The notes under the pieces: generated by a model
The model's database searches: none
Seen by the model: the letters and a program-made list of their open reading frames with translations, nothing else
What the model was told of the DNA's origin: nothing
Assembly: GCA_964448295.1 (NCBI GenBank)
Contig: CAYUVV010000001.1
Span: 89,838-142,064 of the forward strand
Source: an uncultured Candidatus Saccharibacteria bacterium
Lineage (GTDB): Bacteria; Patescibacteriota; Minisyncoccia; Phycocordibacterales; JACOZG01
Length of the DNA: 52,227 nt
Direction: 5' to 3'
Made by a program: the position numbers and the translations under genes
Shown: positions 1,035-23,844 of the stretch, one piece after another
Position numbering within the stretch: the stretch's first letter is position 1
Layout: each line of letters begins with the position of its first letter

Positions 1035-2864
1035 ATGGTTACGACGCGAAAGAAAATCAGACGGCAGCGGACTTGGCGTTTGGACGATATTCTGGCCTTA
1101 GCAGATTATCCAGCGCGGGTGGTGGCGGCAGAAAAATCATTAGACGAACTCACCTTGCGGTTTGAAGGATTAAACTCGTCGGTATCGCCGGCAGAATTTG
1201 CCAACTTTCTCGAGGCGGCGGAGAGTTTAACGACGGAGCTATCGCGTTTGACCTCCCGTCTTGATCTAATGGAGGCGCTAGATTGGCGCGACCCGGACGC
1301 CGCTCGTTTTCGTCCCCTGATTCATCGTTTAACTTTGGCTGGCTCCGCGTTAGCGCGGCAACTTGATCAATGGTTGTCGGGCCGGCGGTTGGCCAACAAG
1401 ATCGCGCTTGATGACGCTACCGCTCGTTCTCTGTTTGCCTCGGTGCCAAAGCTTGAATATCGTTTGTGGCGTAAGCGTCAAGCGGCACGGCATCTTTTGA
1501 GCGAAGCGGAGGAGAAAATTATCGATCATAAGGATCTTAACCTTGCGACCCCGCTTCTCGATTTGCATGATATTCGCGAGACGGAGGAAGAGTATGAATT
1601 GCGCTTGCCCGGACGACGTCCCCGCCGGATCAAAAGCCGTGCCGTTCTAATGGGTTTGGCTTCCGATCATCGGGCCGCTTACCGTCGCGGGTCTTATCAG
1701 GCTTTTTTACGGGTGAAGGATCATTCTGCCCACCAGAGTTTTCTCATCTATCAGGCGGTGGTACGGGACTGGGGCGACGAGGCGCGGTGGCGTAATTATC
1801 CGAGCCCGATCAGCGTTCGCAATCAGAGTAATGATTTGCCCGAGGCGGTGCCGGAAGCCCTGCTTTCAGCCGTAACCGTCGAGCGCGGGGTGTTCCAAGA
1901 TTTTTTCCGTCTCAAGGCCAGACGTTTGGGGGTAAAGAACCTGTCCCGTTTTGATGTGTATGCGCCGCTAGAATCCGCTCGTTTTTCGGCCCGTTATTCT
2001 TTTGCCGAAGCCGAAAAGATTGTTCTCCGCGCTTTCCGGCGTTTTTCGCCGCGTTGGGGCGATCTAGCCGAAAAAATCATTGCCGGTGGCCACCTTGATT
2101 CTCACCCGCGGGCGCGCAAACGAGACGGAGCGTTTTGTGCAACAGTGGCGCCGACTGTTGTCCCGTACGTTTTTCTCAATTACACCGATCGCGCGCGCGA
2201 CATAGCGACTTTGGCGCACGAGCTTGGGCACGGCATCCATTCTTTACTGGCGAGCCACCTACCGGCCAGTGTGCAATCAGCCACCCTGCCTCTGGCCGAG
2301 ACGGCATCCACTTTGGCGGAGCTCGTGTTGTTTGACGAGCTGTTAATGACCGCGCGGGGAGATCGGGAGCGGGCGGGGTTATTAGAGCGTCGTCTGTCCG
2401 ATGCTTATGCGACGATTTTACGCCAAGCAGAGATCGTGCGGTTTGAGATCGCCGCCCACCAAATTATTACGGATGGGGCAACGGTGGACGATGTGTCCGA
2501 TTTGTGGCTCAAGTTAACCCGAGAGCAATTTGGCGGCGCGGTGACGGTGCCCAGGATTTTTCGCCACGAATGGTCATACATTTCTCACATTTTCCACTCA
2601 CCTTTTTACTGCTATGCCTACAGCTTTGGTCAGCTGTTGGCTTTGGTTTTGTACGAGCGCTATCGGCAGACTGGGGTTCAATTTGTGACACAGATTGATG
2701 AACTGTTTTCCGCTGGCGGCTCCGAAGATCCGGTTGTTTTGCTCCGACGGATCGGCGGCGAGCCGGAGACGGTCGAATTTTGGCGTTCTGGTTATGCCCC
2801 CCTTACCCGCTGGCTTGCCGAGCTTGCTTTGGTTTATGATAAAGGCGGTTTATGGAAGAACTGA
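1035..2864 (+). CDS. pepF: M3 family oligoendopeptidase F
   Basis: HELGH zinc motif, KRDGAFC, LAETAST, HIFHSPFYCYAYSFG; start could be any of GTG 1026/1029/1032 or ATG 1035. Confidence 0.85.
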   Translation: MVTTRKKIRRQRTWRLDDILALADYPARVVAAEKSLDELTLRFEGLNSSVSPAEFANFLEAAESLTTELSRLTSRLDLMEALDWRDPDAARFRPLIHRLTLAGSALARQLDQWLSGRRLANKIALDDATARSLFASVPKLEYRLWRKRQAARHLLSEAEEKIIDHKDLNLATPLLDLHDIRETEEEYELRLPGRRPRRIKSRAVLMGLASDHRAAYRRGSYQAFLRVKDHSAHQSFLIYQAVVRDWGDEARWRNYPSPISVRNQSNDLPEAVPEALLSAVTVERGVFQDFFRLKARRLGVKNLSRFDVYAPLESARFSARYSFAEAEKIVLRAFRRFSPRWGDLAEKIIAGGHLDSHPRARKRDGAFCATVAPTVVPYVFLNYTDRARDIATLAHELGHGIHSLLASHLPASVQSATLPLAETASTLAELVLFDELLMTARGDRERAGLLERRLSDAYATILRQAEIVRFEIAAHQIITDGATVDDVSDLWLKLTREQFGGAVTVPRIFRHEWSYISHIFHSPFYCYAYSFGQLLALVLYERYRQTGVQFVTQIDELFSAGGSEDPVVLLRRIGGEPETVEFWRSGYAPLTRWLAELALVYDKGGLWKN

Positions 2865-3802
2865 TTGGACGATTTTCCGAGCAATGGCGGTGTCCTTTAA
2901 CACTGCTTAATGGGGCAGCTTTATCGAGCTACGATCACGCGGTGTTGGTTGGCCTTGGTGGTTCGGCTTTAGCGGCGGATCTATATCTCACCCGGCGGCC
3001 GGAAGTCCCGCTCCTTGTTTGGCGTGATTATAATTTGCCGGAGAGCCCAAGCGAGAATTGGCCGCGCACACGATTAATTCTTTCGTCTTATTCCGGCCAA
3101 ACCGCGGAGGTGTTGATGGCCGCCCGATCGGCGCGGGCGCGGGGTTGGCAACCGCTTGTATTGGCGAGTGGGGGCGAATTATGGCGTTTGGCCGAGGAGT
3201 GTAACTGGCCGCGGATTGTTTTGCCCGCGGGGTGGCCCCAGCGTTTGGCGGTGGGAGTAATGTTGCGGGCTTTGGCTCAAGCGCTTGGTGATGAAGCGAC
3301 AGAGAGCGACTTGCAGAGTTTGCCCGCATCTATTTTTACAGCGGCCGACAGAGAGCGGTCTTCGGATTTGGCTCGTCGCTTACGCGGCACGGTGCCCGTA
3401 GTTTATGCCGCCAACGCCCGTCGGGCGTTGGCCTATTTTTGGAAAATCAGTCTTAACGAAACCGGCAAAATGCCAGCGTTTTATAATGTTTTACCCGAGG
3501 CCAACCATAATGAATTAGAAGGTTTCGCCGCTCAAACAATGACACCGTTTTCTTTTATTTTTATCACGGCGGGAGATAACGAATCCGCCCCCATCGCCCG
3601 GCGTTTCCAAATTTTGGATCGTCAGATTAAATCGAAAGGTTGGTCGGTAGAATGGGTTGAGGCGGGCCATGATTGGCAGGCGTTGTTTCGAGTGGTCCTT
3701 TTGGCAACGGCAACAGCAACGGCACATGCCCGCCTGCTCGGTCTTGACCCGCTGGCAGTGCCGACTATCGACAAATTTAAAGAAGAATTATGCCAAACTT
3801 AA
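2852..3802 (+). CDS. Bifunctional phosphoglucose/phosphomannose isomerase (SIS fold)
   Basis: GLGGSA, SSYSGQTAE and PEANHNELEG motifs. Confidence 0.85.
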   Translation: MEELIGRFSEQWRCPLTLLNGAALSSYDHAVLVGLGGSALAADLYLTRRPEVPLLVWRDYNLPESPSENWPRTRLILSSYSGQTAEVLMAARSARARGWQPLVLASGGELWRLAEECNWPRIVLPAGWPQRLAVGVMLRALAQALGDEATESDLQSLPASIFTAADRERSSDLARRLRGTVPVVYAANARRALAYFWKISLNETGKMPAFYNVLPEANHNELEGFAAQTMTPFSFIFITAGDNESAPIARRFQILDRQIKSKGWSVEWVEAGHDWQALFRVVLLATATATAHARLLGLDPLAVPTIDKFKEELCQT

Positions 3803-7071: not shown

Positions 7072-7483
7072 GCCGGTTATGGAATGATCTTTTGCCAGAT
7101 GACCGCTCTCGCCTGCCGTTTCGGTTGGCGGGGGAGGAAAGTCCGAACACCGTCAAAAATGGTAGTGGGTAACACCCATCGCCCGCTCGGTGACGAGTGA
7201 GGCAGGGACAGTGCCACAGAGACAAATACTATCCGCCGTTAGGGCGGAGAAAGGTGAAAAGTCTGCTGATGTTCTTTTGGGGGCAACAGCAGAGCCCATT
7301 CGCCGTTTGGTGGGTGGGCGGGTAAACCCTACCTGGTGCAAGGCCGTGTCCGTCCGCCACTGGCAGACGGAAGTGCCGCTTGATCTTGCGAGCAATTGCA
7401 AGACTAGATAAATGGTCATCATCCGCCATCAGGCGGAACAGAATTCGGCTTATCGGCGACTGATTATTTTTATTTCAACCGGT
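7072..7483 (+). ncRNA. rnpB: RNase P RNA (core approx. 7091-7460; ends approximate)
   Basis: GAGGAAAGTCC (7134-7144), AGTGCCACAGA, GGTAAACCC, GCAAGGCC, ACAGAATTCGGCTTAT; 5'/3' ends can pair (CCGGTT/AACCGG). Confidence 0.95.
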
Positions 7484-13618: not shown

Positions 13619-13689
13619 GCGGGATTAGTTCAGGGGCAGAATGCGTGCTTCCCAAGCATGAGACGCGAGTTCGATTCTCGCATCCCGCA
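13619..13689 (+). tRNA. tRNA-Gly (CCC)
   Basis: GCGGGAT/ATCCCGC acceptor, CGTGC-ttCCCaa-GCATG, TTCGA T-loop; CCA not encoded. Confidence 0.95.
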
Positions 13690-13713
13690 TTTACTAGGCC
13701 AACCAAAAATATT

Positions 13714-13750
13714 AAAAACACCCCGCGCCTTTTGAGCAACGGGGTGGTTT
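13714..13750. terminator. Bidirectional terminator hairpin
   Basis: AAAAA-CACCCCG...CGGGGTG-GTTT. Confidence 0.6.
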
Positions 13751-13790
13751 GAAGTTTTTGGTTGACAACTAACCCATGGACATACCATGA

Positions 13791-15629
13791 TCAAGATTCC
13801 GAACCAAGACGCTCCACGTCTTTCTGGTGCATCGTGGCATAGATACCGCCTCGAGCCATCAGCTCGCAGTGGGTTCCTTGCTCGACGATCTCGCCCTTGT
13901 CCATGACGATCACCTTGTCGCACCGCTCAGCGCGGCAAACATGGTGAGTGATCATAACCACAGTGATGCCTTTGAGAGCGAACACCTGGTCGATGACCTT
14001 CTGCGCGGACTCGGGATCGAGCTTTGCATCGGGTTCATCGAGGATGAGAATCGGCGTTCCCCGATAGTGAACTCGGGCCAGCGCCAGACGCTGTTTTTCT
14101 CCGCCGGAGAAGTCTCTGCCTCCGAACTCCACTCCGATCTGCGACTCGTATCCTTTCGGGTCCGAGTCAACAACCTCGTCGAAGTTTGCGAATCTGCATG
14201 ACGCAGCCACAGCCTTGAGGTCGATTGTTTGACCGAGGCGAGAAGATGCGATCTCCTCGCCAACGCGACGTTCGAGCACCGTGTATTCCTGTGTCAGTGA
14301 GGAAGCGATGTTGCTCCACACATTAGGCTCGATGTTCCGCAGATTGATGTCGCCTGCGTATACCGCGCCGGAAGTTGGGTCGTAATGTCGCATGAGAAGT
14401 GCCTGGATCGTGGACTTGCCGCTGCCGCTCTTACCGACGATCGCCAGATTTGTGCCTGGCTCTATTATGAAGCTCACGTTCTTGAGCACCAGTGTGTTGG
14501 TTTCGGGATACGCGAAGCATACTTTATCGAACCTGACGAGCGGCGTGATGTCGAATCTGGGGACCACCGGATACTCCGTCTTAATAACGGGCTTCAAGCC
14601 TAGGAAATCTTTCTCGATGAGAATGACTCCTTTGGCGCTGTTCCACTGCTCGGCGATGAGCGACACGATGGCTTCCATGTTCCCTTGAAAAGTTCTCGCG
14701 GCCGCCATGACGATAGTGAGCGTTCCGATTTCTCCCGCGTAAGCGATTGTTGACCAGATTGCGTGAATGATGACCCCGCACAAGCCGGTAACCGCCAGAA
14801 GATGAGTGAGCATCTCTTTGCGAATGCTGACCTTGCGAATCTGATTGTAAGCATCAAGCACGCTGCCGACGTTGATGTCGATGTCTCGACGCAACGGCTG
14901 CATCTGGTTGAACATGAGCGCCTGCACAAAGGCGTTAGTGTTGTGGTAAGGCTTTTCCAGAACGCTGCGCTGCTTATGATGCGGCACAAGTTGTTGGAAA
15001 AGATTCCACCACATGGCGACAAGCCTGAACTCTACAATCATCATCGGCAGTGCGGTGAGCACTAGGACGAGGGCGTAAATTGACTTGTACCAAAGGAGCG
15101 ATGCTCCGAACAGAGCGAACGATACTACGGTCGTGAAGAGATTGAACATCTCGTCAGAGAACCAGATTCTCGTCTGCCATGAAGTCGGAAGCTCCTGGAT
15201 TCGCTTTTGCAGGTCGTCGTATTCTTTACTCCTGAAGCGAGCCACATCGAGTGTTGCCCGATGATCGTTGAGTTCGCGTTGGTTGGCGAACCGCAACGTC
15301 TGATTCCACTTGCTCCGGTAGAACCAGTTGAACCGGCCGAGTATCACTCCGAAGAGTAACACTCCGAGCAGGAATGCGACTGGACCGAGAAGACCGCTTT
15401 GGGCAATCTCCGCGAGCGAGTGGGTTCCTCCCTTGAACTTTCCCATCATGCCCTGAACCTCATTGATGATGAGGCCCGTGGCTTGGATGGTCAAATAAAG
15501 GAGGACAGTTGTGACCGCCGAGATGGCAAGCCGGCCGGTCGTCTCCGTCTTGCTGTGTCTCCAGCAAAACGAAAATGAATAGCGCGCTGCGAGAAGCAGC
15601 GTTGCAATCGTTTCTTTCAGTTTGTTCAT
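13791..15629 (-). CDS. ABC exporter (fused TMD + NBD)
   Basis: N-terminal TM domain; GKSGSGKST, LTQE, FSGGEKQR, ILILDE, ITHH. Confidence 0.9.
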   Translation of the reverse strand: MNKLKETIATLLLAARYSFSFCWRHSKTETTGRLAISAVTTVLLYLTIQATGLIINEVQGMMGKFKGGTHSLAEIAQSGLLGPVAFLLGVLLFGVILGRFNWFYRSKWNQTLRFANQRELNDHRATLDVARFRSKEYDDLQKRIQELPTSWQTRIWFSDEMFNLFTTVVSFALFGASLLWYKSIYALVLVLTALPMMIVEFRLVAMWWNLFQQLVPHHKQRSVLEKPYHNTNAFVQALMFNQMQPLRRDIDINVGSVLDAYNQIRKVSIRKEMLTHLLAVTGLCGVIIHAIWSTIAYAGEIGTLTIVMAAARTFQGNMEAIVSLIAEQWNSAKGVILIEKDFLGLKPVIKTEYPVVPRFDITPLVRFDKVCFAYPETNTLVLKNVSFIIEPGTNLAIVGKSGSGKSTIQALLMRHYDPTSGAVYAGDINLRNIEPNVWSNIASSLTQEYTVLERRVGEEIASSRLGQTIDLKAVAASCRFANFDEVVDSDPKGYESQIGVEFGGRDFSGGEKQRLALARVHYRGTPILILDEPDAKLDPESAQKVIDQVFALKGITVVMITHHVCRAERCDKVIVMDKGEIVEQGTHCELMARGGIYATMHQKDVERLGSES

Positions 15630-15724
15630 TTGCTACCTCTCTTTTTGGATTTGAGTTTGAAGGCTTTTTTATGCCTTGGTTCGGAATTGACAAAGGACGT
15701 AACTTGGTTCAGTGTTCCTACTTG

Positions 15725-15753
15725 ATTATAACAAATATGTATTCTGTAGTCAA
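15725..15753 (-). promoter_or_regulatory. sigma70 promoter of ABC exporter
   Basis: TTGACT-17 nt-TATAAT with TG extension. Confidence 0.8.
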
Positions 15754-15810
15754 GGGTATTTTATAAGGTTGGTTTTTTTGGTTCATAATCGTGTGCTAGA
15801 ATGCAGCCCT

Positions 15811-16065
15811 ATGAAAAAAGTTGTGATTTATAGCACGCCGACTTGCGGTTATTGCCAGCTGGCCAAAGAGTTTTTTCGTGAGCACGAGGTGGCTTACGAG
15901 GAGCATAATGTGGCCACCGATGCCGTTAGGCGCAAGGAGATGGTAGATAAAACCGGCCAATTGGGCGTGCCGGTGATCGTGGTGAGCGACGCCGACGGGA
16001 AAAATGAGCAAGTGATTATAGGCTTCGACGAAACCGGTCTCCTGTCGGCCTTGGGACTTAAATAA
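15811..16065 (+). CDS. Glutaredoxin / NrdH-redoxin-like protein
   Basis: YSTPTCGYC, GQLGVPVI, IIGFD; start moved to ATG 15811, 8 nt after TGcTAGAAT. Confidence 0.88.
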   Translation: MKKVVIYSTPTCGYCQLAKEFFREHEVAYEEHNVATDAVRRKEMVDKTGQLGVPVIVVSDADGKNEQVIIGFDETGLLSALGLK

Positions 16066-16071
16066 AGCCCA

Positions 16072-16143
16072 GCCCCCGTAGTTAAATGGATATAACAACT
16101 CCGTCCTAAGGAGTAATTGTAGGTTCGATTCCCACCGGGGGCA
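16072..16143 (+). tRNA. tRNA-Arg (CCT)
   Basis: GCCCCCG/CGGGGGC acceptor, ACTCC-gtCCTaa-GGAGT, GGTTCGATT. Confidence 0.92.
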
Positions 16144-16183
16144 TCAATTCGCTTTTTGGGACCGGCTTTGTTATATTAGTTTC

Positions 16184-16468
16184 GTGGAGTGGACGGATCA
16201 TCGCTTAAACAAGGTTGAGGCTCTGGTAGAGGAGAATAATAAAATTCTCCGCCGTTTGCAGAGAACGGCACGCTGGACCCAGTTTTTCGTGTTTGTGAAG
16301 TGGGTGGTGATTTTAGGCGCGTCGTTTGGCCTGTATTACTACCTCCAGCCGTTAGTTGACGGTTGGCTGTCGACTTATCAATCACTCTGGCAGCAGGCCG
16401 GAAATTTGGGAGAAAGTTTGCCGTTTTTGGGCGGTTCGGTTGAGGAGAGTTTAACAACGCCGAGGTAG
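16184..16468 (+). CDS. Small single-TM protein with N-terminal coiled coil; stop codon lies inside tRNA-Phe
   Basis: LVEENNKILRRLQR...FVKWVVILGASFGLYYYLQP; TGtTATATT six nt before GTG. Confidence 0.75.
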   Translation: MEWTDHRLNKVEALVEENNKILRRLQRTARWTQFFVFVKWVVILGASFGLYYYLQPLVDGWLSTYQSLWQQAGNLGESLPFLGGSVEESLTTPR

Positions 16469-16534
16469 CTCAGTTGGTAGAGCGTCCGCCTGAAGAGCGG
16501 TAGGTCGCCGGTTCGAGCCCGGCCCTCGGCACCA
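16459..16534 (+). tRNA. tRNA-Phe (GAA)
   Basis: GCCGAGG/CCTCGGC-ACCA, anticodon loop ctGAAga, GGTTCGAG. Confidence 0.97.
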
Positions 16535-16699
16535 GAAAGGAAATTGCAAGCCAGAGCTCGCCGCCTCGCTGTGCTCGGCGGCTCGCGCGTATTGTATTTT
16601 CGGCTCAAAACGGAATTCGCGATTTCGTTTGAGGGGAAGAAAAATTTTTAATCCAATACGAAATCTCAGAAAAAGCTCTAAAATATTGGCTTTTTCTGT

Positions 16700-16733
16700 T
16701 GCGCTTGACTTTCAAGCGCATACATGCTATATT
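16700..16733 (+). promoter_or_regulatory. sigma70 promoter with operator-like palindrome over -35
   Basis: TTGACT(16705)-17 nt-TGcTATATT(16728); TGCGCTTGA-ctt-TCAAGCGCA perfect 9-bp inverted repeat. Confidence 0.75.
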
Positions 16734-16824
16734 GGTGCTGTCATCGGAATTCCAAAAACCCGCTGACCTTGGCGGTATTGTGCCGCCGAGAACAGCACAT
16801 TCCCAAAAGGAAGGAGCGATAGTC

Positions 16825-16973
16825 ATGCACGAACTCGTTCTCGTTGGCAAGACCGTGGCACTCGTCTGCTCGCTGGCAGGCCTGTACTTCACCGTCAAGC
16901 CGAGTACCAGAAGTCCTCGTTGGCCTGGAACGGAGCGGCGGCCATCCTGTGGCTCGTTTCGTTCGTCGCGTAG
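16825..16973 (+). pseudogene. Frameshifted 49-aa two-TM protein
   Basis: AAGGAAGGAG SD, MHELVLVGKTVALVCSLAGLYFTVK then -1 frame AEYQKSSLAWNGAAAILWLVSFVA*; one base missing at about 16899. Confidence 0.65.
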
Positions 16974-17000
16974 CACCGCACGCCATGTCTCGGCCCCATC

Positions 17001-17038
17001 GCCGCGCTATTCTCCGGAGTAGCGCGGCATTTCTTTTT
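17001..17038 (+). terminator. Intrinsic terminator of the small cassette
   Basis: GCCGCGCTA...TAGCGCGGC then ATTTCTTTTT. Confidence 0.75.
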
Positions 17039-17121
17039 AATTGAAGTATTTTGTAATTTCATATAAGATTTAATTGGTGTTTGCTTTGCAAACTCAAATT
17101 TATTCGCCGTCAAAGAAAAAC

Positions 17122-17223
17122 TTGAAATTGTCAGCGGTGCGGCTTCGCCGCCTGCATTTTTGGCGGGGGTTCTGCCGCGCCGAAGGCGCGGTGGGTTCGC
17201 ACTAATTCAAGTATCCTGCACCG
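17122..17223 (-). repeat. Element-end remnant E1 (GC hairpins, shared motifs with 23491-23657)
   Basis: TTGAAATT..AGCG, GCGGCTTCGCC, CCGCGCCGAAGGCGCGG, TGGGTTCGC at same distance from CACC core as in E2. Confidence 0.6.
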
Positions 17224-17316
17224 GTTGGCTTACCAGCTAATATGTGTTAGTTTAGCTGGCACGTTGGTCTTTGATTTTTGAGGTTTGCTCGTTCCACTTT
17301 TCATAAGGGGCAAGTT

Positions 17317-18039
17317 ATGCCTACTCGACGTATCGTGCTTAAGTTTTCTGGAAAGATGTTTGATTCCGACTCCGGTTTGCAAACATTGGCAGACGTTCTT
17401 AGGTCCCTTTGTAAAACGATGGAGGTGGTGCTTGTGCCGGGGGGTGGCAATCTTCACCGTCGGGAGCGGGGGAGGTCGCGAATCGCCGGAGATCGTAGTC
17501 CTCTTGCGGCTGAACACCGGTCTAATTGTGTCGGCATGTTGGCCACCGTGGCTAATGCCTTCTGGCTGGTGGATGCCCTAGACTTGGTTGGTATGACTTA
17601 CGGGGCGTTGAGTAAATTACCAATAAAAACGTTAATACCAGATTACACCGTCGAGCAAGCTAAACAGTTGCTGGCCCAAAGACATCTGTTGATTGTGTGC
17701 GGGGACACAGGGCAACCCGGTGTCAGTACCGATACGGCGGCCGTTTTAATGGCCTATGAGTTGGGGGTTGAAACTGTTTACAAAGGGACAAATGTCCCCG
17801 GAATTTTCCCCTTGGACACTGAGGGAAGACCCCAGATCGGAGCACCGGTTATCAATGAGTTAACTGGCACTCAATTTCTTGCCGGCGGTTTTCACACAAT
17901 TCTTGATCCTTGTGCCGTGGCTTTAGCCAGAGACCACCGCATTGCTCTACAGGTTTTTGAATCGTGCCGGTTGTGCTCGGATGCCATCGTTCGCTCAATT
18001 ACTAACAATGTCACCGGTACGACTATCAAGCCGGTCTAG
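17317..18039 (+). CDS. Divergent UMP kinase (PyrH-like, amino-acid kinase fold)
   Basis: VLKFSG, VPGGGN, GMLATVAN, GQPGVSTDTAA, KGTNV, ILDPCA, GTTI; several canonical residues altered. Confidence 0.7.
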   Translation: MPTRRIVLKFSGKMFDSDSGLQTLADVLRSLCKTMEVVLVPGGGNLHRRERGRSRIAGDRSPLAAEHRSNCVGMLATVANAFWLVDALDLVGMTYGALSKLPIKTLIPDYTVEQAKQLLAQRHLLIVCGDTGQPGVSTDTAAVLMAYELGVETVYKGTNVPGIFPLDTEGRPQIGAPVINELTGTQFLAGGFHTILDPCAVALARDHRIALQVFESCRLCSDAIVRSITNNVTGTTIKPV

Positions 18040-18059
18040 CGGGGTAACCCGCAACCAAT

Positions 18060-18095
18060 AACCCGCCCACGTTTGTCGTGCGGCGGGTTTCTTTA
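18060..18095. terminator. Terminator hairpin between convergent genes
   Basis: AACCCGCC-CACG...CGTG-C-GGCGGGTT then TCTTT; preceded by GCGGG-gtaa-CCCGC. Confidence 0.65.
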
Positions 18096-18108
18096 TTCGA
18101 ACGAAATA

Positions 18109-18588
18109 TTACACCGACTTAACTTTAATTTTTTTAACCTTGTCTTTATCGATTTTTGGCAAACGAATGGTAAGGAGCCCGTGCCACTCGGTGGCCTCGG
18201 CCTCGTCAGCTTCGACTTCGGCCGGCAGTAAAATGGTTTTAGCAAACGAGCCCCAATAAAGTTCTTGTTGGAAATAATCCTCGCCTTCGGCCTCGCGTGT
18301 AAATTCCCGTCGGCCGCGGATGGTCACCATATCGCGCGTAATGTTGATCGTCAGATCCTCGGGGCGGACGCCGGCCGTCATGGTTTTGATATAAATATCA
18401 GTCGGTGTTTGGTAAACATCTACGGCAAGCTCGCCCTCTTCCTCCGGCGCTTCGTCTGGCAATTCTTTTTTGCCGGGCGTTTGGTGAGCGACGTAGTCCT
18501 CGGGACCAAGATCCTCGTCCTCACTCCGCAGGGGAGAAAAGTTGCCCGTCAATCTTTCGAAAAAAGAACGTCGCCCTTTTGCCATCAT
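18109..18588 (-). CDS. Hsp20 / alpha-crystallin small heat-shock protein
   Basis: LAVDVYQT, AGVRPEDL, ELYWGSFAKTILLP, GLLTIRLPK. Confidence 0.9.
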   Translation of the reverse strand: MMAKGRRSFFERLTGNFSPLRSEDEDLGPEDYVAHQTPGKKELPDEAPEEEGELAVDVYQTPTDIYIKTMTAGVRPEDLTINITRDMVTIRGRREFTREAEGEDYFQQELYWGSFAKTILLPAEVEADEAEATEWHGLLTIRLPKIDKDKVKKIKVKSV

Positions 18589-19352
18589 AGTTTTTTAATT
18601 GCTTTTGCTTTTTCAAATAATAAAATTACCAAAATCGCCGCAAGCCACAGTAAGAGAAACACTTGGAAAATTTGACCGAGCCCCACTTCACTCTCGGCAG
18701 ACCGACCAACTTGGCTCAGGTTAATTATAGAAAGGTTGAAAAAGGCGTGCAAGCCAACGGCGAGGATGAGACCGCCCCAACCCGCGATCCGGCGCCGCCA
18801 ACCTCGGGCATAAAAACCGAGTGCTAGCCCAAAACCGAAAATTCCCGATGAGGCTACGTGGAGAATCGTTGCGCCGATAAAGCGCAAATTTCCGGTAAGA
18901 GTGAAGGTGGCGAGATCCAGACCGGCGCGAATGTCTCCCAGTAGATACAAAGAGTTTTCGACGGCGGCAAAGCCGAGCGCGGCGGTAACGAGGTAGATCA
19001 TTGCGTCTACTGGTTCGTCGTAATCCCGATTGCGAAAAACGGCCAAGGCCACCGCGCCGAATTTGACGAGTTCCTCAATAATGACCCAGACGATCACAAG
19101 GCCGGTTGAAACGAGGAGAGAGTCGGCGACGGCCGCTGTTTCGTTAAAGAATATGTCTTTTGCTAAGCGTTCCAGCACGAAAGCGGGCAAAACGGAGATT
19201 GCACCTAGGGCGAAGACGAGCCCGATCAATTTTTTGGGTTCGGGACGGGCCTTATCTTCCTTTAACCAAAACCACAACCACAGGCCGGCAGGGAGGATGC
19301 CACCGAGAGCCGACCAATAGAGATTGCCGTCGGTAACGATTTCCCAAAACAC
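18585..19352 (-). CDS. PrsW family intramembrane glutamic metalloprotease
   Basis: IIEELVKF, LGFAAVEN, LHVASSG, LHAFFN; EDKARPEP. Confidence 0.88.
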   Translation of the reverse strand: MFWEIVTDGNLYWSALGGILPAGLWLWFWLKEDKARPEPKKLIGLVFALGAISVLPAFVLERLAKDIFFNETAAVADSLLVSTGLVIVWVIIEELVKFGAVALAVFRNRDYDEPVDAMIYLVTAALGFAAVENSLYLLGDIRAGLDLATFTLTGNLRFIGATILHVASSGIFGFGLALGFYARGWRRRIAGWGGLILAVGLHAFFNLSIINLSQVGRSAESEVGLGQIFQVFLLLWLAAILVILLFEKAKAIKKL

Positions 19353-19356
19353 TCGC

Positions 19357-20481
19357 TTATTTTACCAAAACATCGTCAGGTGAGCGAAGCGGCCATTCGC
19401 CGTGGACGCGAATGGCCGCGAACTCCGGTTCTGCCGGAAGGAGTGGTTGGTAACCACAAGCCATTTCAATGAAAGCCGCCGCCGCGATCATCGTGGCATT
19501 ATCGCCCGTGAGGTTGGCCGAGGGCGCTAAGAGAGGTTGATTGGTAGACTCGCGCGCTATCGTTTCCAAACGACGAACAAGTTCGTGATTGGCGGCCACC
19601 CCGCCTCCCACGACGATCGTTTGCGGATGATGTTCTGCCGCGGCGTGTTTGGTTTTGGCGATCAAGGAATCAAGCGCCGCTTCTTCAAAAGCTAGCGCGA
19701 CCTTTAATGCGGTTTGTTCCCGTGCCCGTTCCTCGGGCTCCATTTGCGCCAACCGGTAACGAACGGCCGTTTTCAAACCCGAAAAAGAAAAATCTAGATC
19801 GCGACTATTTTGCATTGGCCGTGGGAAAGGTGGAGTCAATCGGAAACTCGCCGGTAGTTCTCGCCGCGCGCGATCAGCCAGTTGGGCGAGCGCCGGCCCG
19901 CCCGGATAAGGGAGATCGAGTAAACGGGCCACCTTATCGTAGGTCTCACCAACCGCATCGTCGCGCGTTTCCCCAAGCTTTTCATAACGCCCCCAGTCGC
20001 GGAGGAGTACGAGCTCGGTGTGGCCGCCGCTTACGATCAGAGCCAAAACCGGAAAAACAAATTGTAATTTTTTGGCGCCATTGTTGGGGGCTTCGGTTAC
20101 GAGAGGGGAATACAGGTGGCCGGCAAGATGATTGGTGGGATAGAGGGGGAGTTTGCGTTCTCGAGCTAGCGCGCGGGCGAACTCGAGGCCAACCCAGAGT
20201 GCCGGTTCGAGTCCTGGTCCAGCGGTAACGGCAATCAAGTCTACTTCTGGTTTGATTGGAACGGCGGCGAATAGAATCGGAAGATTTTTTTCGTGCTCAC
20301 GGCGGGCAAGATTAGGCACTACGCCCCCGAAGGGGGCGTGAATTTTGGTTTGTGAAGAGACGGCGTGGTGGAAGACACGAAAACGCGGTTGCTCATTTAC
20401 CCATTCTCCGCCTACCAAGCTGATTGCTGTTTCGTCGCAACTTGTCTCAATCGCTAAAACTGTTTTTGCCGATTTATCCAC
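19357..20481 (-). CDS. tsaD: tRNA N6-adenosine threonylcarbamoyltransferase
   Basis: IETSCDET, GGVVP, GPGL..AL, HLAGH, SGGHT, DDAVGE, FSFSGLKTA, GDNATMIA. Confidence 0.95.
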   Translation of the reverse strand: MDKSAKTVLAIETSCDETAISLVGGEWVNEQPRFRVFHHAVSSQTKIHAPFGGVVPNLARREHEKNLPILFAAVPIKPEVDLIAVTAGPGLEPALWVGLEFARALARERKLPLYPTNHLAGHLYSPLVTEAPNNGAKKLQFVFPVLALIVSGGHTELVLLRDWGRYEKLGETRDDAVGETYDKVARLLDLPYPGGPALAQLADRARRELPASFRLTPPFPRPMQNSRDLDFSFSGLKTAVRYRLAQMEPEERAREQTALKVALAFEEAALDSLIAKTKHAAAEHHPQTIVVGGGVAANHELVRRLETIARESTNQPLLAPSANLTGDNATMIAAAAFIEMACGYQPLLPAEPEFAAIRVHGEWPLRSPDDVLVK

Positions 20482-20514
20482 TTTCTAGCCATACTGGCAT
20501 TTTTTTCTCAAACG

Positions 20515-20541
20515 TGCTAGAGTGAAGACCAGAAAGGGGGT
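20515..20541 (+). promoter_or_regulatory. Extended -10 plus strong SD module
   Basis: TGcTAGAGT-gaagacc-AGAAAGGGGGT, 8 nt before TTG. Confidence 0.65.
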
Positions 20542-20549
20542 GACAGGTC

Positions 20550-20918
20550 TTGAAGAAACGAGCTAATCGTCGTTATCATCGGAATATCTCGCGCCCAAGA
20601 ATTTTCGAAGTCTATGGCTCAAGAGAGGACGGCACACTTGTTTTTTTGGGAAGAACGCAAGCCGTTAGTCCCGCTCAAGCTACCAATCAGGTGCGGTTTC
20701 GAGAATTTGGGCTGAAGCCAGAGGATGAGTTACCATACGGTTTGGTAGCTAAAGAAATCACCAAACCACAGATTCCAGCAGACTCAAGTAGAGATGACGA
20801 GGAACCACCGAAAGAGAGATCCAAGCCCAAGCCGAATACCGTCAATCGAGGCATACCGCCTCGATTGACCTGCTTGCTTTTTCCGGTTAGAGATCCTACG
20901 GCTTGGGCTAGGGTGTAA
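20550..20918 (+). CDS. Hypothetical basic protein (orphan cassette)
   Basis: Own promoter/SD and downstream terminator; Arg-rich N-terminus, low-complexity C-terminus. Confidence 0.55.
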   Translation: MKKRANRRYHRNISRPRIFEVYGSREDGTLVFLGRTQAVSPAQATNQVRFREFGLKPEDELPYGLVAKEITKPQIPADSSRDDEEPPKERSKPKPNTVNRGIPPRLTCLLFPVRDPTAWARV

Positions 20919-20920
20919 CC

Positions 20921-20960
20921 GCGCTCGCGCATCATGGATGATGCCGAGCGCCTTTTTGTT
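20921..20960. terminator. Terminator hairpin
   Basis: GCGCTCG-c-GCATCAT/ATGATGC-CGAGCGC then CTTTTTGTT. Confidence 0.65.
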
Positions 20961-20962
20961 TG

Positions 20963-21034
20963 TGACCCCACCGGGAATCGAACCCGGATTTGCGCCTTGA
21001 AAGAGCGCTGTCCTAACCATTAGACGATGAGGCC
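20963..21034 (-). tRNA. tRNA-Glu (TTC)
   Basis: Reverse complement GGCCTCATCGTCTAATGGTTAGGAC AGCGCT-ctTTCaa-GGCGC...GGTTCGATTCCCGGTGGGGTCA; TTGGCA-17-TGtTAAAGT promoter upstream. Confidence 0.95.
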
Positions 21035-21514: not shown

Positions 21515-21829
21515 ATGTCGCTTTTCTTCTTTTTCGCCGTTGGAGTGTTGGAGCTCTTTATTGTCACGGCCTGGACGAAGGTGGTGGTGGGCTCGCGGGT
21601 GGTTATGAGCGGGGCCGTCACTTTTGTTAACGTGCTTATCTGGTATTTGGTGCTGGAGACTATTATCTCCGACATTAATAACTGGCCGCTCGTGCTAGTT
21701 TACGCGCTCGGTTGCGCGCTCGGCACGATGATCGGGGTTTCTTATCTTGATCGTAAAAGCGCGCCGGTGGACGAGATGGCGGACCAGTCGCCCAAACTAA
21801 TCGAACATGAGTCAGTCTCAATCGCCTGA
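21515..21829 (+). CDS. Small three-TM protein, DUF5698-like
   Basis: VNVLIW...LVLVYALGCALGTMIG pattern; start moved to ATG 21515 (longer ORF runs through tRNA-Ser). Confidence 0.65.
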   Translation: MSLFFFFAVGVLELFIVTAWTKVVVGSRVVMSGAVTFVNVLIWYLVLETIISDINNWPLVLVYALGCALGTMIGVSYLDRKSAPVDEMADQSPKLIEHESVSIA

Positions 21830-21858
21830 CGACGTTCCAGATCCCGACGGTAAATCCT

Positions 21859-21888
21859 AAAACGGCTTCGCGTGAGCGAGGCCGTTTT
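21859..21888. terminator. Intrinsic terminator
   Basis: AAAACGGCTTCGC-gtga-GCGAGGCCGTTTT. Confidence 0.7.
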
Positions 21889-21984
21889 ATGGTTAAGATA
21901 TAAAAAATATGAAAAGTTGTGCCAGCGCGAGCTTTACACGTCTAAGCACAGCCAATTAGTTTTAATGTCGCTTTGCTCGGCGAA

Positions 21985-22068
21985 TCCGTTTGGGCGGCAC
22001 GGGAAGGAAAGGGGGTGAGGGAGAAAGGAATTCCCGCGCCGCCCTCGCTTGCCGTCGATACGCTAAAA
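21985..22068 (+). repeat. 84-bp inverted repeat, left copy
   Basis: 80/84 identical to reverse complement of 23497-23580; internal GGGCGGC(A)CGGGAA/TTCCCGCGCCGCCC stem with purine-rich loop. Confidence 0.92.
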
Positions 22069-22069
22069 A

Positions 22070-23485
22070 CTACTTTGAATAAGATAAAGAGTCGATTATC
22101 TTATCAAAAAGTTTTTCAAGAGAAGCAAATTTCGCGTTTGTTCCTTCAAAATGAATGCTCATGCCCGGCCACTTGCTTGATTTCGTCTGCAAAATGGCGG
22201 CTTTGAATGGAATGGATTGTCTTTTGTCGGCAGGAATTTCGCCTTCTCCATATTCGTATTTGTAGGCGAAATTCCCCTTGAAGACGACAACTTTCACTCC
22301 GTTTGAAAGCGTTCGCAAATTACATTCGGTTATCTTTATGTCGTAAGAACCAGAAGAATCAAGATAAGCGTTCTTCTGGCAAGCTGTATCAAGCGATTGG
22401 CCAGAATACTGATAAAGAGGAGGTGAACCTTCGTAAACGTAATTTGCAGTCTTAGAGTTGTCGGCTTCAAATTCTACTTGTGCCGGATCATCCCAAGAAA
22501 AGAGAGGGCTCTTGAACGAGATATTGATAGTTTCAATTCGCGGCTCCGAACCAAACGCGCCGCCAGTTGATTCAACAAGGTTGCCCCAATACTTCGGAAC
22601 TTTAAATGCCACGCCTAACTCTTTGGAAGATTGAGCCGCGAATTGATTGATGTCAATCGGCAACGCTTTTACAGAAGCAAGAATATCCTGAAATTCTGCA
22701 TACTTCTGTTCGTTGAACAGCCCCTTAATCGTCGCGGCGTTCAATGATTGAGCGTTGGCAGGAAGTTTATTGGTTTTCTCCTGATAAACAATATAGATTA
22801 CTCGTTCATTCAAATTCGGGTCCTTGATGAAAACTCTATCTTCCAAAGTGTACTCAACGGGTGTCGTCTTATCTCTCGCGTATGCGTTCACATACGAATC
22901 AGTTAATCCAGTCGCGTAATATCTAACCGCTTCCATTCCGTTTATTTGAAATGGTTTGCTACCGGTTTCATCTTGATAGACATATTGTGGATAATCGTAA
23001 ATCGGAAATTGAGGATTATTTTTCTCAACCTGTAAGGGAATATCATAATGAGGCAAACCATTTCCAAGTCGAATGAAAGCGGAAAAACTTATGCAGTCAA
23101 TCGGGCAAGCATTCCGGCTATATCCGTTCGGATATTGATAGGATTGGAAAAAAATGTTTGGCAACATTTTGCTTCCATCTTCATCTTTATCAAGGAGAGA
23201 AAGTGTTTGTGGATACTGAAAACTTATCGCGGTGTCTGCATCTGTATACAAAGCATGTCCAGCTTTCGGAGTTTCCTGAACTGTATTTACAGAAGTGTTT
23301 GACTGATTTTTAACGATACTTGAATTTTTATAAAAATAATTTTTGTAGACAAAAAAACCAATGACCAACAAAATAATAACAACGCCAGTCAAAGCAAGAA
23401 CTAATTTTGAATTGCCGCTTTTTGGAGTATTGAAATTTGTTGGCGGCAAATTACCAACCTGTGGTTCTTTATTTTCTTCTTCCAT
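22070..23485 (-). CDS. Membrane-anchored surface protein with two PsbP-like domains (AT-rich gene)
   Basis: N-terminal tail + TM (LVLALTGVVIILLVIGFFVY), YTDADTAISFQYP and SKELGVAFKVPKYWG domain starts; start moved to ATG 23485 (471 aa). Confidence 0.75.
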   Translation of the reverse strand: MEEENKEPQVGNLPPTNFNTPKSGNSKLVLALTGVVIILLVIGFFVYKNYFYKNSSIVKNQSNTSVNTVQETPKAGHALYTDADTAISFQYPQTLSLLDKDEDGSKMLPNIFFQSYQYPNGYSRNACPIDCISFSAFIRLGNGLPHYDIPLQVEKNNPQFPIYDYPQYVYQDETGSKPFQINGMEAVRYYATGLTDSYVNAYARDKTTPVEYTLEDRVFIKDPNLNERVIYIVYQEKTNKLPANAQSLNAATIKGLFNEQKYAEFQDILASVKALPIDINQFAAQSSKELGVAFKVPKYWGNLVESTGGAFGSEPRIETINISFKSPLFSWDDPAQVEFEADNSKTANYVYEGSPPLYQYSGQSLDTACQKNAYLDSSGSYDIKITECNLRTLSNGVKVVVFKGNFAYKYEYGEGEIPADKRQSIPFKAAILQTKSSKWPGMSIHFEGTNAKFASLEKLFDKIIDSLSYSK

Positions 23486-23496
23486 ATTTATTGAAA

Positions 23497-23580
23497 TTTT
23501 AGCGCATCGACGGCAAGCGAGGGCGGCGCGGGAATTCCTTTCTCCCTCACCCCCTTTCCTTCCCGCGCCGCCCGAGCGGA
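23497..23580 (-). repeat. 84-bp inverted repeat, right copy (part of element end E2)
   Basis: Reverse complement matches 21985-22068 with 4 mismatches. Confidence 0.92.
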
Positions 23581-23619
23581 CAGTTTTGGGAAGTTCGCAA
23601 AACGCCGCAGGCGTTTTGC

Positions 23620-23776
23620 TCAAAATGGGTTCGCGCTACATTCAGAATATCCCACCAAAAGGAATTTTGCAAATTTTCGGAAGAGGTTGCCTCGCGGCTT
23701 CGCCCCTGCCGAGCGGCGAAGCCGCGAGGCAATGCTTCCGTCTGGCTCAAAAAATTCTGAAAGTTCCTGTTGGTGG
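23620..23776. mobile_element. att-like / recombinase-tail remnant forming an extended imperfect palindrome next to tRNA-Ala
   Basis: 18-bp perfect stem 23687-23704/23715-23732; both outward arms end in TGGTGG (23652-23657 on -, 23771-23776 on +) and match at 21/26 positions. Confidence 0.6.
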
Positions 23777-23844
23777 ACCTAGGGAGAATTGAACTCCCGC
23801 CTCCTCCATGCCATGGAGGCGTCGTACCACTAGACTATAGGCCC
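23771..23844 (-). tRNA. tRNA-Ala (GGC)
   Basis: Reverse complement GGGCCTA...CCTCC-atGGCat-GGAGG...TTCAATT...TAGGTCC-ACCA; A32-U38 typical of Ala-GGC. Confidence 0.95.

Follow-up and report, generated by a model that had tools for sequence, protein, structure and literature searches.

What is the 694-bp insert that separates the tRNA-Phe gene from a pyrH-like kinase gene in the genome of an uncultured Candidatus Saccharibacteria bacterium, and how did it get there? The insert, at positions 16529-17222, belongs to a 52,227-nt stretch of DNA (GenBank assembly GCA_964448295.1, contig CAYUVV010000001.1, positions 89,838 to 142,064 of the forward strand), which was analysed as a whole and which we call the window. 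A sequence-only reading of the window had proposed that the insert is a mobile island whose ends carry the two halves of a split recombinase tail, with an unsplit homologue of the joined motif beside tRNA-Ala. The halves, the homologue and their translations are all present as it described. We consider it probable, at roughly 0.8, that the insert is a non-autonomous, decayed member of a family of ~3-kb elements, spread across the Candidate Phyla Radiation (CPR), that encode a large serine recombinase (LSR) and insert at the 3′ ends of tRNA genes. Taken by itself, the island appears to be an ordinary relic in decay; the family to which it points is apparently undescribed, and we found no account of it in the literature.

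On the minus strand, the DNA running into the tRNA-Phe gene reads ...NREFRFEPKIQYARAAEHSEAASSGLQFPFWC-RG... and continues as tRNA antisense, the TGG of this arm being the antisense of CCA. The far end of the island reads ..GGTGGGTTCGCACTAATTCAAGTATCCTGCACC followed by GG on the plus strand, and the minus strand of 17191-17222 translates as CRILELVRTH. We call the tail-coding arm the A arm and the far one, the B half of the sequence-only reading, the P arm. The unsplit homologue at 23626-23672 reads ...SSENLQNSFWWDILNVARTHF. The half-patterns (TGGGTTCGCRCTA..ATTCA..TATCC and CACCA..AAGGAA..TTGCAA) occur nowhere else in the window, and 100 shuffles gave an expectation of 0; since both patterns were composed from the window sites themselves, the real proof lies in independent matches in other genomes. 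A Logan contig from a different sample (L001) is 100% identical to the window over 13641-20989, so the arrangement of the island is not an assembly artefact.

Among the sources of such matches are a protein search that returned more than 7,700 LSR homologues, of which the best 120 underlie our counts of tails and identities; a survey of 80 metagenome loci; and 11 loci in CPR metagenome-assembled genomes (MAGs), mostly Saccharibacteria, obtained with a degenerate pattern for the right-hand half. L numbers denote loci and contigs outside the window. The A arm of the window matches residues 458-490 of the LSR of L014 with 94% identity (tblastn, E 7e-15), and as DNA it shares 98% identity with the L010 and L014 arms (blastn). 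The LSRs of tRNA-adjoining units have 490-535 aa with Resolvase, Recombinase and Zn_ribbon_recom domains (Pfam; among relatives in general, L009, L010, L014, L017 and L018 have all three domains), and their C-terminus reads ..EAASSDLQFPFWCA before the stop. The best 120 homologues are 70-94% identical and come from many CPR lineages. The assignment of the tail to large serine recombinases, put forward in the sequence-only reading, is thus borne out for CPR bacteria by four intact MAG genes, the 120 homologues and the 80 metagenome loci. An intact LSR is absent from the window, where tblastn detected only relics of residues 458-490 and 31-41, in agreement with the earlier view that the island has lost its recombinase.

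The junction with the tRNA is precise. The tRNA 3′ end falls exactly at the W codon in all 34 loci in which a tRNA was called at the tail motif (tRNA-Leu, -Arg, -Lys, -Ile, -Met and -Val), so that this codon is the antisense of the tRNA CCA, and a survey of flanks adds tRNA-Gln and tRNA-Tyr as LSR neighbours. The joined form of the two halves, GTATCCTGCACCAGAAAGGAAATTGCAAG, is contiguous in L010, in L014 and in one soil-metagenome contig (X8). In L010 and L014 the left half lies beyond the end of the P arm, and the motif produced by joining the halves at their core is therefore real. In most genomes, however, what the joined P+A motif represents is not a free attP: it lies inside the element, as an inverted copy of the putative attP site.

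An explanation by chance similarity, or by a common promoter or terminator motif that has nothing to do with mobile elements, has next to no probability. The joined motif does resemble a -35/-10 pair and hairpins follow both of its copies, but its left half matches the LSR tail at the protein level with the E value given above, identical and sharp-ended arms recur in many genomes, shuffling predicts no matches at all, and no Rfam family matches. A promoter-only reading was set aside on similar grounds: the -35/-10 pair is there, but the protein-level tail match and the sharp ends of the arms are left unexplained.

If the element integrates through these ends, they should look like the half-sites of a serine integrase. 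The P arm has the consensus ..GCGTTCGGACTAATTCAAGAATACT followed by GCACC, and G-C-A-C-C is common to the partner sites. GTTCG, the T-loop motif, stands 23 nt before the boundary in the P arm versus 18 nt in the tRNA. At the Phe site of the window the distance is 18 in the tRNA (16511 to 16529) and 23 in the P arm (17195 to 17218); at the Ala site it is 18 in tRNA-Ala and 23 in the arm, at 23629. GTTCG precedes GCACC by 18 nt in 27 of 31 tRNA-side flanks, and the offset between P arm and tRNA is exactly 5 in 30 of 31 loci and in three further loci with tRNA-like flanks. For a serine integrase, the zinc-ribbon motif of attB was shown to sit 5 bp nearer the centre than that of attP (Rutherford et al. 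2013, PMC3783163). By this comparison we infer a B-type half-site at the tRNA end and a P-type one in the P arm, which fits the earlier proposal that the far arm is half of a split attP. From this it follows that the junction of tRNA and A arm would be a putative attL, that of P arm and flank attR, and P arm joined to A arm attP. The LSR would thus read the T-loop and acceptor end of a tRNA as an attB half-site and the tip of the P arm as an attP half-site, with strand exchange inside the shared G-C-A-C-C, at the boundary of acceptor and discriminator. The ends of the arms are as sharp as such a crossover would make them: conservation of the P arm ends sharply at ..TGCAC(C) in eight loci with differing flanks, and in the MAG loci it extends ~100 nt inward from an abrupt end at ..TGCAC(C) or ..CCCAC(C), past which the sequences are unrelated.

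An attP that overlaps the last codons of the LSR makes the residues after ..FPxWC depend on whatever sequence is joined there, and the C-terminus does vary with context, as the sequence-only reading had suggested. Among the best 120 homologues, 86 stop within three residues of ..FPxWC or continue into tRNA antisense (..RQESNLRP.., ..GPGSNRRP..), and 10 continue into arm-encoded tails (..RT[H/Y/F] or VYFTK..) such as WCSILELVRTHF.. or WCVYFTKLEPIFK. The residues after WC are arbitrary, number from 2 to more than 60 and are set by the tRNA, which argues that the C-terminal extension is neutral. The further suggestion that exchange of the C-terminus acts as a switch of directionality or activity is speculative.

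The intact relatives show what the island would once have been part of. Starting from the tRNA, they have an A arm, the LSR, an A arm and a P arm that are both inverted, a leader with one cargo gene, and a P arm that borders on the flank, over ~3 kb in all, with the LSR gene directed towards the tRNA. Each arm is ~100 nt long, and the bottom strand of the A arm encodes the last 33 codons of the LSR. Of the 80 loci, 64 have an inverted copy of this tail-coding arm upstream of where the LSR starts, at least 90 nt long in 43 of them, and most loci without it are cut by a contig end. The arms within one unit are near identical although the LSRs diverge by 20-35%. In the MAG loci, chains of units start exactly at the tRNA 3′ end, and the units are bracketed by 76-154-nt inverted repeats of ~100% identity. 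Where A arm and P arm meet, they form a -35/-10 pair (TTGCAA or TTGACT, a 17-nt spacer and TATTCT). At 40 of the 44 distinct junctions this pair is directed into the cargo gene, whose promoter it may be. The inverted tail copies around the LSR and the inverted P arms around the cargo are, like the second decayed element considered below, additions to the sequence-only reading.

Cargo was judged in the 38 loci with enough sequence. A module lies on the head side of the LSR in 33 of these (one module in 32, two in tandem in L026), and none was detected in five. The modules measure 0.7-2.1 kb between inverted P arms of 97-100% identity, and the cargo differs in every locus examined; much of it consists of unknown proteins, and those with names are a dihydroorotate dehydrogenase, a short-chain dehydrogenase, a metallophosphatase, an SSF transporter and an HNH protein. 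Each module (L022-L100, and also L014 4814-6004 and L102 1500-2460) holds pieces of the element's own LSR gene, four in kind, 20-30 nt each and inverted relative to it. The order is proximal arm, LSR nt 137-157, nt 1334-1360, nt -44 to -18, cargo, LSR nt 91-119 and distal arm; order and orientation are the same in 33 of 33. The leader piece (nt -44 to -18), which precedes both the LSR and the cargo gene, was detected in 30 of the 33 modules, and the piece of nt 91-119 (codons 31-40) lies just inside the distal arm in all of them. To the eye, the pieces look like an LSR circle turned inside out around a 17-nt hairpin at nt 120-136. The fixed order argues that LSR and cargo form one composite and not a random chain of independent cassettes.

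This bears on a modular, integron-like system, in which each bracketed unit would be a separate circle with a palindromic site, chained at the tRNA, the A+P motif only a seam, and the island a deletion product that was never mobile. It would account for several features: every unit has its own near-perfect inverted repeat, arms are conserved while cargo differs per locus, one arm type brackets different genes (a 471-aa protein in the window, an SSF transporter in L009), L025 and L055 have more bracketed genes across the LSR, L026 has its tandem modules, and a palindromic P.P′ would be a textbook symmetric attP. We nevertheless regard it as unlikely. Variable numbers of modules would be expected, whereas all but one of the 33 loci have a single module, always on the head side of the LSR; random insertion of circles predicts both orientations, which the uniform internal order contradicts; excision between inverted sites would require a palindromic crossover dinucleotide; and A...P hybrid islands occur at three different tRNAs. 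On the tail side of the LSR, L025 (1936-4713, an 845-aa open reading frame (ORF)) and L055 (2090-5253, two ORFs) have perfect 117-123-nt inverted repeats that abut the ORFs.

The LSR-less A...P form seen at tRNA-Phe recurs at tRNA-Lys in L013, where both ends are 89% identical and the cargo is another, and at tRNA-Leu in L004, which points to repeated decay or to movement of satellites. The L004 island (1277-3441) spans 2.1 kb from tRNA-Leu to a B-type arm, and its two small ORFs look like a HicA/HicB pair by eye.

The orientation of the LSR raises a different possibility. Its tail points towards the tRNA in 43 loci and its head does so in L055, and in L102 the LSR segment is flipped beside its cargo. 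A domesticated inversion switch, in which the LSR would only flip its own gene between the tRNA-A junction and the inverted P-A junction, toggling itself or the cargo, would place the recombinase within a segment bounded by inverted sites, as in Hin. The presence of both orientations (43 loci versus L055 and L102) agrees with this, as does the sigma-70-like promoter that straddles the junction and points into the cargo in 40 of 44 cases, and identical arms would make product sites equal to substrate sites, so that a directionality factor would be unneeded. The tRNA-Phe island would then be a dead switch. We hold this to be very improbable. LSRs of 70-94% identity occur at at least eight tRNA species, in many CPR lineages and with unrelated flanks and cargo, and movement between sites and genomes is therefore required; the ~100-nt P arm is 100% identical across aquatic, groundwater and wastewater samples; and orientation at tRNAs is skewed 43:1, not the mix expected of a frequently used switch.

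Copies of the ends also occur in environmental DNA. The ends of the island (16535-16700 and 17041-17222) match contigs from unrelated aquatic, groundwater, wastewater and soil metagenomes that have different middles, and the contigs that match these ends do not match the chromosomal flanks of the island. The identical P arm was found in the metagenome runs X5-X7 and is also present in CPR MAGs. The contig of soil run X8 joins 17217 straight to 16529, a joint that could stem from a circle, from copies in tandem or from a module that has flipped. In the sample that contains the organism of the window, the assembly graph branches exactly after 17222. In groundwater run X6, the depth of contigs matching window positions 17079-17160 reaches ~12,000x, because the conserved LSR codons 31-40 and the arm are common to very many CPR elements.

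The empty tRNA-Phe site would read CCCTCGGCACCGGTTGGCTTACC and the circle junction of the island AAGTATCCTGCACCAGAAAGGAAATTGC. In the flipped state, as in L102, two direct copies of the leader would flank the LSR. Recombination between them would remove the LSR together with the inner arms of both kinds and the two other LSR pieces, and the product would be exactly the LSR-less form of the window. Any further movement of the island at tRNA-Phe would depend on an LSR provided in trans. As a more general proposal, which we hold tentatively and rate a little below even odds, the CPR family may consist of minimal (~3-kb) single-gene shuttles. Their attB half-site would be the T-arm and acceptor end of almost any tRNA gene and their attP would overlap their own last codons; two inverted copies of attP between the LSR and cargo segments would form a flip-flop; they might invert, integrate and perhaps leave without a directionality factor, and LSR-less satellites would ride along.

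Several observations weigh against a mobile LSR family as the source of the island. That the zinc-ribbon domain of the LSR would recognise GTTCG is argued by analogy. The A arm has no GTTCG-type motif at either spacing and shares with tRNAs only TCCT, at positions 9-12; its standing as the P′ half-site thus follows from position only, and each site seems to have just one specific half. Within the core, GC fits most loci as the crossover dinucleotide, but L034 would need CA and L048 AC. P-type arms lie on both sides of an LSR unit, with no tRNA nearby, in L017, L025 and L058. No directionality factor is encoded in the elements. Sequencing runs were screened as Logan contigs, which break at repeats; those of runs with the window held neither an empty tRNA-Phe site nor a circle junction of the island, and those of runs holding L014 held no joints. 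The pyrH-like gene had no homologue but itself at E<=1e-40 among 5.8 billion proteins, so no empty-site allele was comparable.

P-type arms on both sides were also seen in L026, L038, L057, L061 and L103, with no tRNA within the available sequence (at most 6 kb), and a second arm type among such units yields the tail WCVYFTKLEPIFK. Neither of the small contigs L102 and L103 has overlapping ends that would indicate a circle.

The unsplit motif beside tRNA-Ala, which had been read as an intact recombinase tail, turned out to have another setting. It is not in a recombinase gene; it marks the place where, inside a second element from which the LSR body has gone, a remaining pair of tail arms meets a cargo module. 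The minus strand of the pair (23652-23776) still reads ..SREATSSENLQNSFWW and resembles the tail of the L009 LSR, ..SGSKNLQNSCWWT before its stop. The proximal P arm tip (23626-23656) makes the unsplit motif together with 23653-23672, and the distal arm has lost its outer tip. A gene for a 471-aa protein is bracketed by 84-nt inverted repeats (21985-22068 and 23497-23580, 95% identity), the arm type that in L009 encloses the SSF transporter. The sequence-only interpretation, largely correct though incomplete, thus stands for the identity of the tail, the attP type of the far arm and the loss of the recombinase, and falls for the setting of the unsplit motif.

How does this family compare with known systems? 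Phage-type large serine integrases (Listeria A118/LI, Bxb1, phiC31) have the same enzyme of Resolvase, Recombinase and zinc-ribbon domains, a short shared core and a distal motif whose distance from the crossover is 5 bp smaller in attB than in attP. Unlike them, the CPR family targets the generic 3′ end of many tRNA genes and not one gene, only one half of each of its sites looks specific, and its putative attP overlaps the stop region of its own enzyme. It also differs in being very small, at ~3 kb with a single cargo gene, in lacking a directionality factor, and in the ~100-nt inverted copies of its own tail that bracket the LSR gene in a two-segment layout. IS607, Tn4451 with TnpX and Tn5397 with TndX resemble the CPR family in their small size and in their use of a serine recombinase that has no separate directionality factor. 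These transposons are not known to have long terminal inverted repeats or to target tRNA ends.

The putative attP of the CPR family lies in the integrase frame, as attP does in SSV1-type fuselloviruses, and in both integration into a tRNA gene would alter the ORF. The Int of SSV1, however, is a tyrosine recombinase that is split into two large parts, whereas the CPR enzyme is a serine recombinase that loses or exchanges only the residues after ..FPxWC, 2-3 codons before the usual stop. tRNA-gene islands and tycheposons (Islander/TIGER-type) likewise occupy tRNA 3′ ends, carry small cargo and have recombinase-less satellites. Such islands use mainly tyrosine integrases and are marked by a direct repeat of the 3′ part of the tRNA (PMC4383910). 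In the CPR family, by contrast, the crossover would lie between acceptor and discriminator, ACCA is all that is supplied, and the repeats have inverted orientation.

Integrons resemble the CPR elements in having a recombinase divergent from the cassette, a promoter at the recombinase-side junction that points into the cassette, and diverse single-gene cargo. They use the tyrosine integrase IntI, attI and a single attC per cassette, whereas the CPR elements have a serine enzyme, two long inverted ~100-nt arms and no attC hairpin at one end, the whole platform is mobile, and usually there is one cassette and not a variable array (one module in 32 loci, two in L026). Salmonella Hin and yeast 2-micron FLP also have the recombinase between inverted sites, with both orientations found, and their layouts too consist of two unique segments separated by two inverted junction copies. 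The CPR enzyme, however, is a large serine recombinase, neither a small serine recombinase nor the tyrosine recombinase FLP, and the element also integrates. In contrast to identical hix or FRT sites, its outer half-sites differ (tRNA versus P arm, attL-like and attP-like), and unlike the Hin and Gin switches, which are fixed in the chromosome, it is found at many tRNAs.

CPR bacteria (Patescibacteria) have tiny genomes whose gain of genes is poorly understood, and a family with thousands of LSR copies across CPR lineages, each examined copy with a different single gene, could be one of the main ways in which genes travel among them. The study of recombinases would gain hundreds of natural attB/attP pairs that obey the 5-bp rule, in which the attB half-site is a universal feature of tRNAs and only one half-site per site appears specific. 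Genome engineering might find an attractive landing-pad tool in a serine integrase that is compact and directed to the ends of tRNA genes.

Table 1. Features of the tRNA-Phe island and of the relic beside tRNA-Ala, in window coordinates.
Feature	Position	Strand	Basis
tRNA-Phe(GAA)	16459-16534	+	ARAGORN and Rfam
Putative attB-type half-site of tRNA-Phe	GTTCG 16511-16515 ... GCACC 16529-16533	+	T-loop-to-acceptor end
A arm, relic of the last 33 LSR codons (..REFRFEPKIQYARAAEHSEAASSGLQFPFWC)	16529-16628	-	tblastn, translation
'Up' piece, copy of the LSR 5′ leader (LSR nt -44 to -18)	16629-16657	+	blastn
Sigma-70-like promoter, TTGACT-17-TATATT, TG before -10	16705-16733	+	promoter scan, 10/12 matches
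Cargo ORF with ribosome-binding site, 65 codons as it stands	16825-17022	+	translation
Intrinsic-terminator-like hairpin, 12-bp stem, then T run	17001-17028	+	terminator scan
Copy of LSR codons 31-40 (FAVKEKLEIV)	17103-17132	+	tblastn, residues 31-41
P arm	17133-17222	+	conservation ends sharply; metagenome identity
Putative attP-type half-site, P arm tip	GTTCG 17195-17199 ... GCACC 17218-17222	+	motif spacing
pyrH-like amino-acid-kinase gene, adjoins island	17317-18039		gene call
Cargo module of second element	21985-23655	-	inverted-repeat search, low GC
471-aa membrane-anchored protein	22070-23485	-	low-GC gene in the cargo module of the second relic
Back-to-back pair of A′-type tail arms, LSR body gone	23652-23776		local alignment, hairpin
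tRNA-Ala(GGC)	23771-23844	-	target of second, decayed element

Within the tRNA-Phe island, the 'up' piece matches L010 2197-2227 and L014 4725-4699 (blastn). The cargo ORF is preceded by a strong predicted promoter and a ~90-nt leader, and L013 carries TTGACA-17-TAGTAT at the position equivalent to the promoter. Homologous copies of the ORF in groundwater run X6 have one extra base after 16900. The ORF of the window is thus probably frameshifted; with the extra base it would encode a membrane peptide of ~50 aa and two helices, with its end at 16973.

Searches of viral contigs, by exact 20-mer and by LSR, found no phage carrier; the single exact 20-mer match lies within coding sequence of a high-GC phage and is put down to chance. 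In two IMG/VR contigs (L015 60-430 and L016 4-354), the LSR ends after residue 117 and unrelated phage-like genes follow, a break that looks like an insertion into the gene or a viral contig boundary.

Other candidates for the two sites were rejected. A tRNA pseudogene was ruled out by the absence of T-stem pairing, and for group II intron ends the GUGYG motif is missing and inverted repeats are present. The arms are not symmetric as in a dif/Xer site, and an integron attC was dropped on reading the sequence. A transposon with terminal inverted repeats, or a miniature inverted-repeat transposable element, was rejected on two counts: the bracketed units have no target duplication at their ends, and a repeat search showed that the ends of the island (16529-17222) are not inverted repeats of each other. 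Sensitive Rfam scans of 16535-17350 and 21800-23770 returned nothing. A structured RNA or tRNA-like gene was likewise discarded, as Rfam finds only tRNAs and RNase P RNA in the window; the latter is a bacterial class A RNase P RNA at 7087-7468 (188.6 bits).

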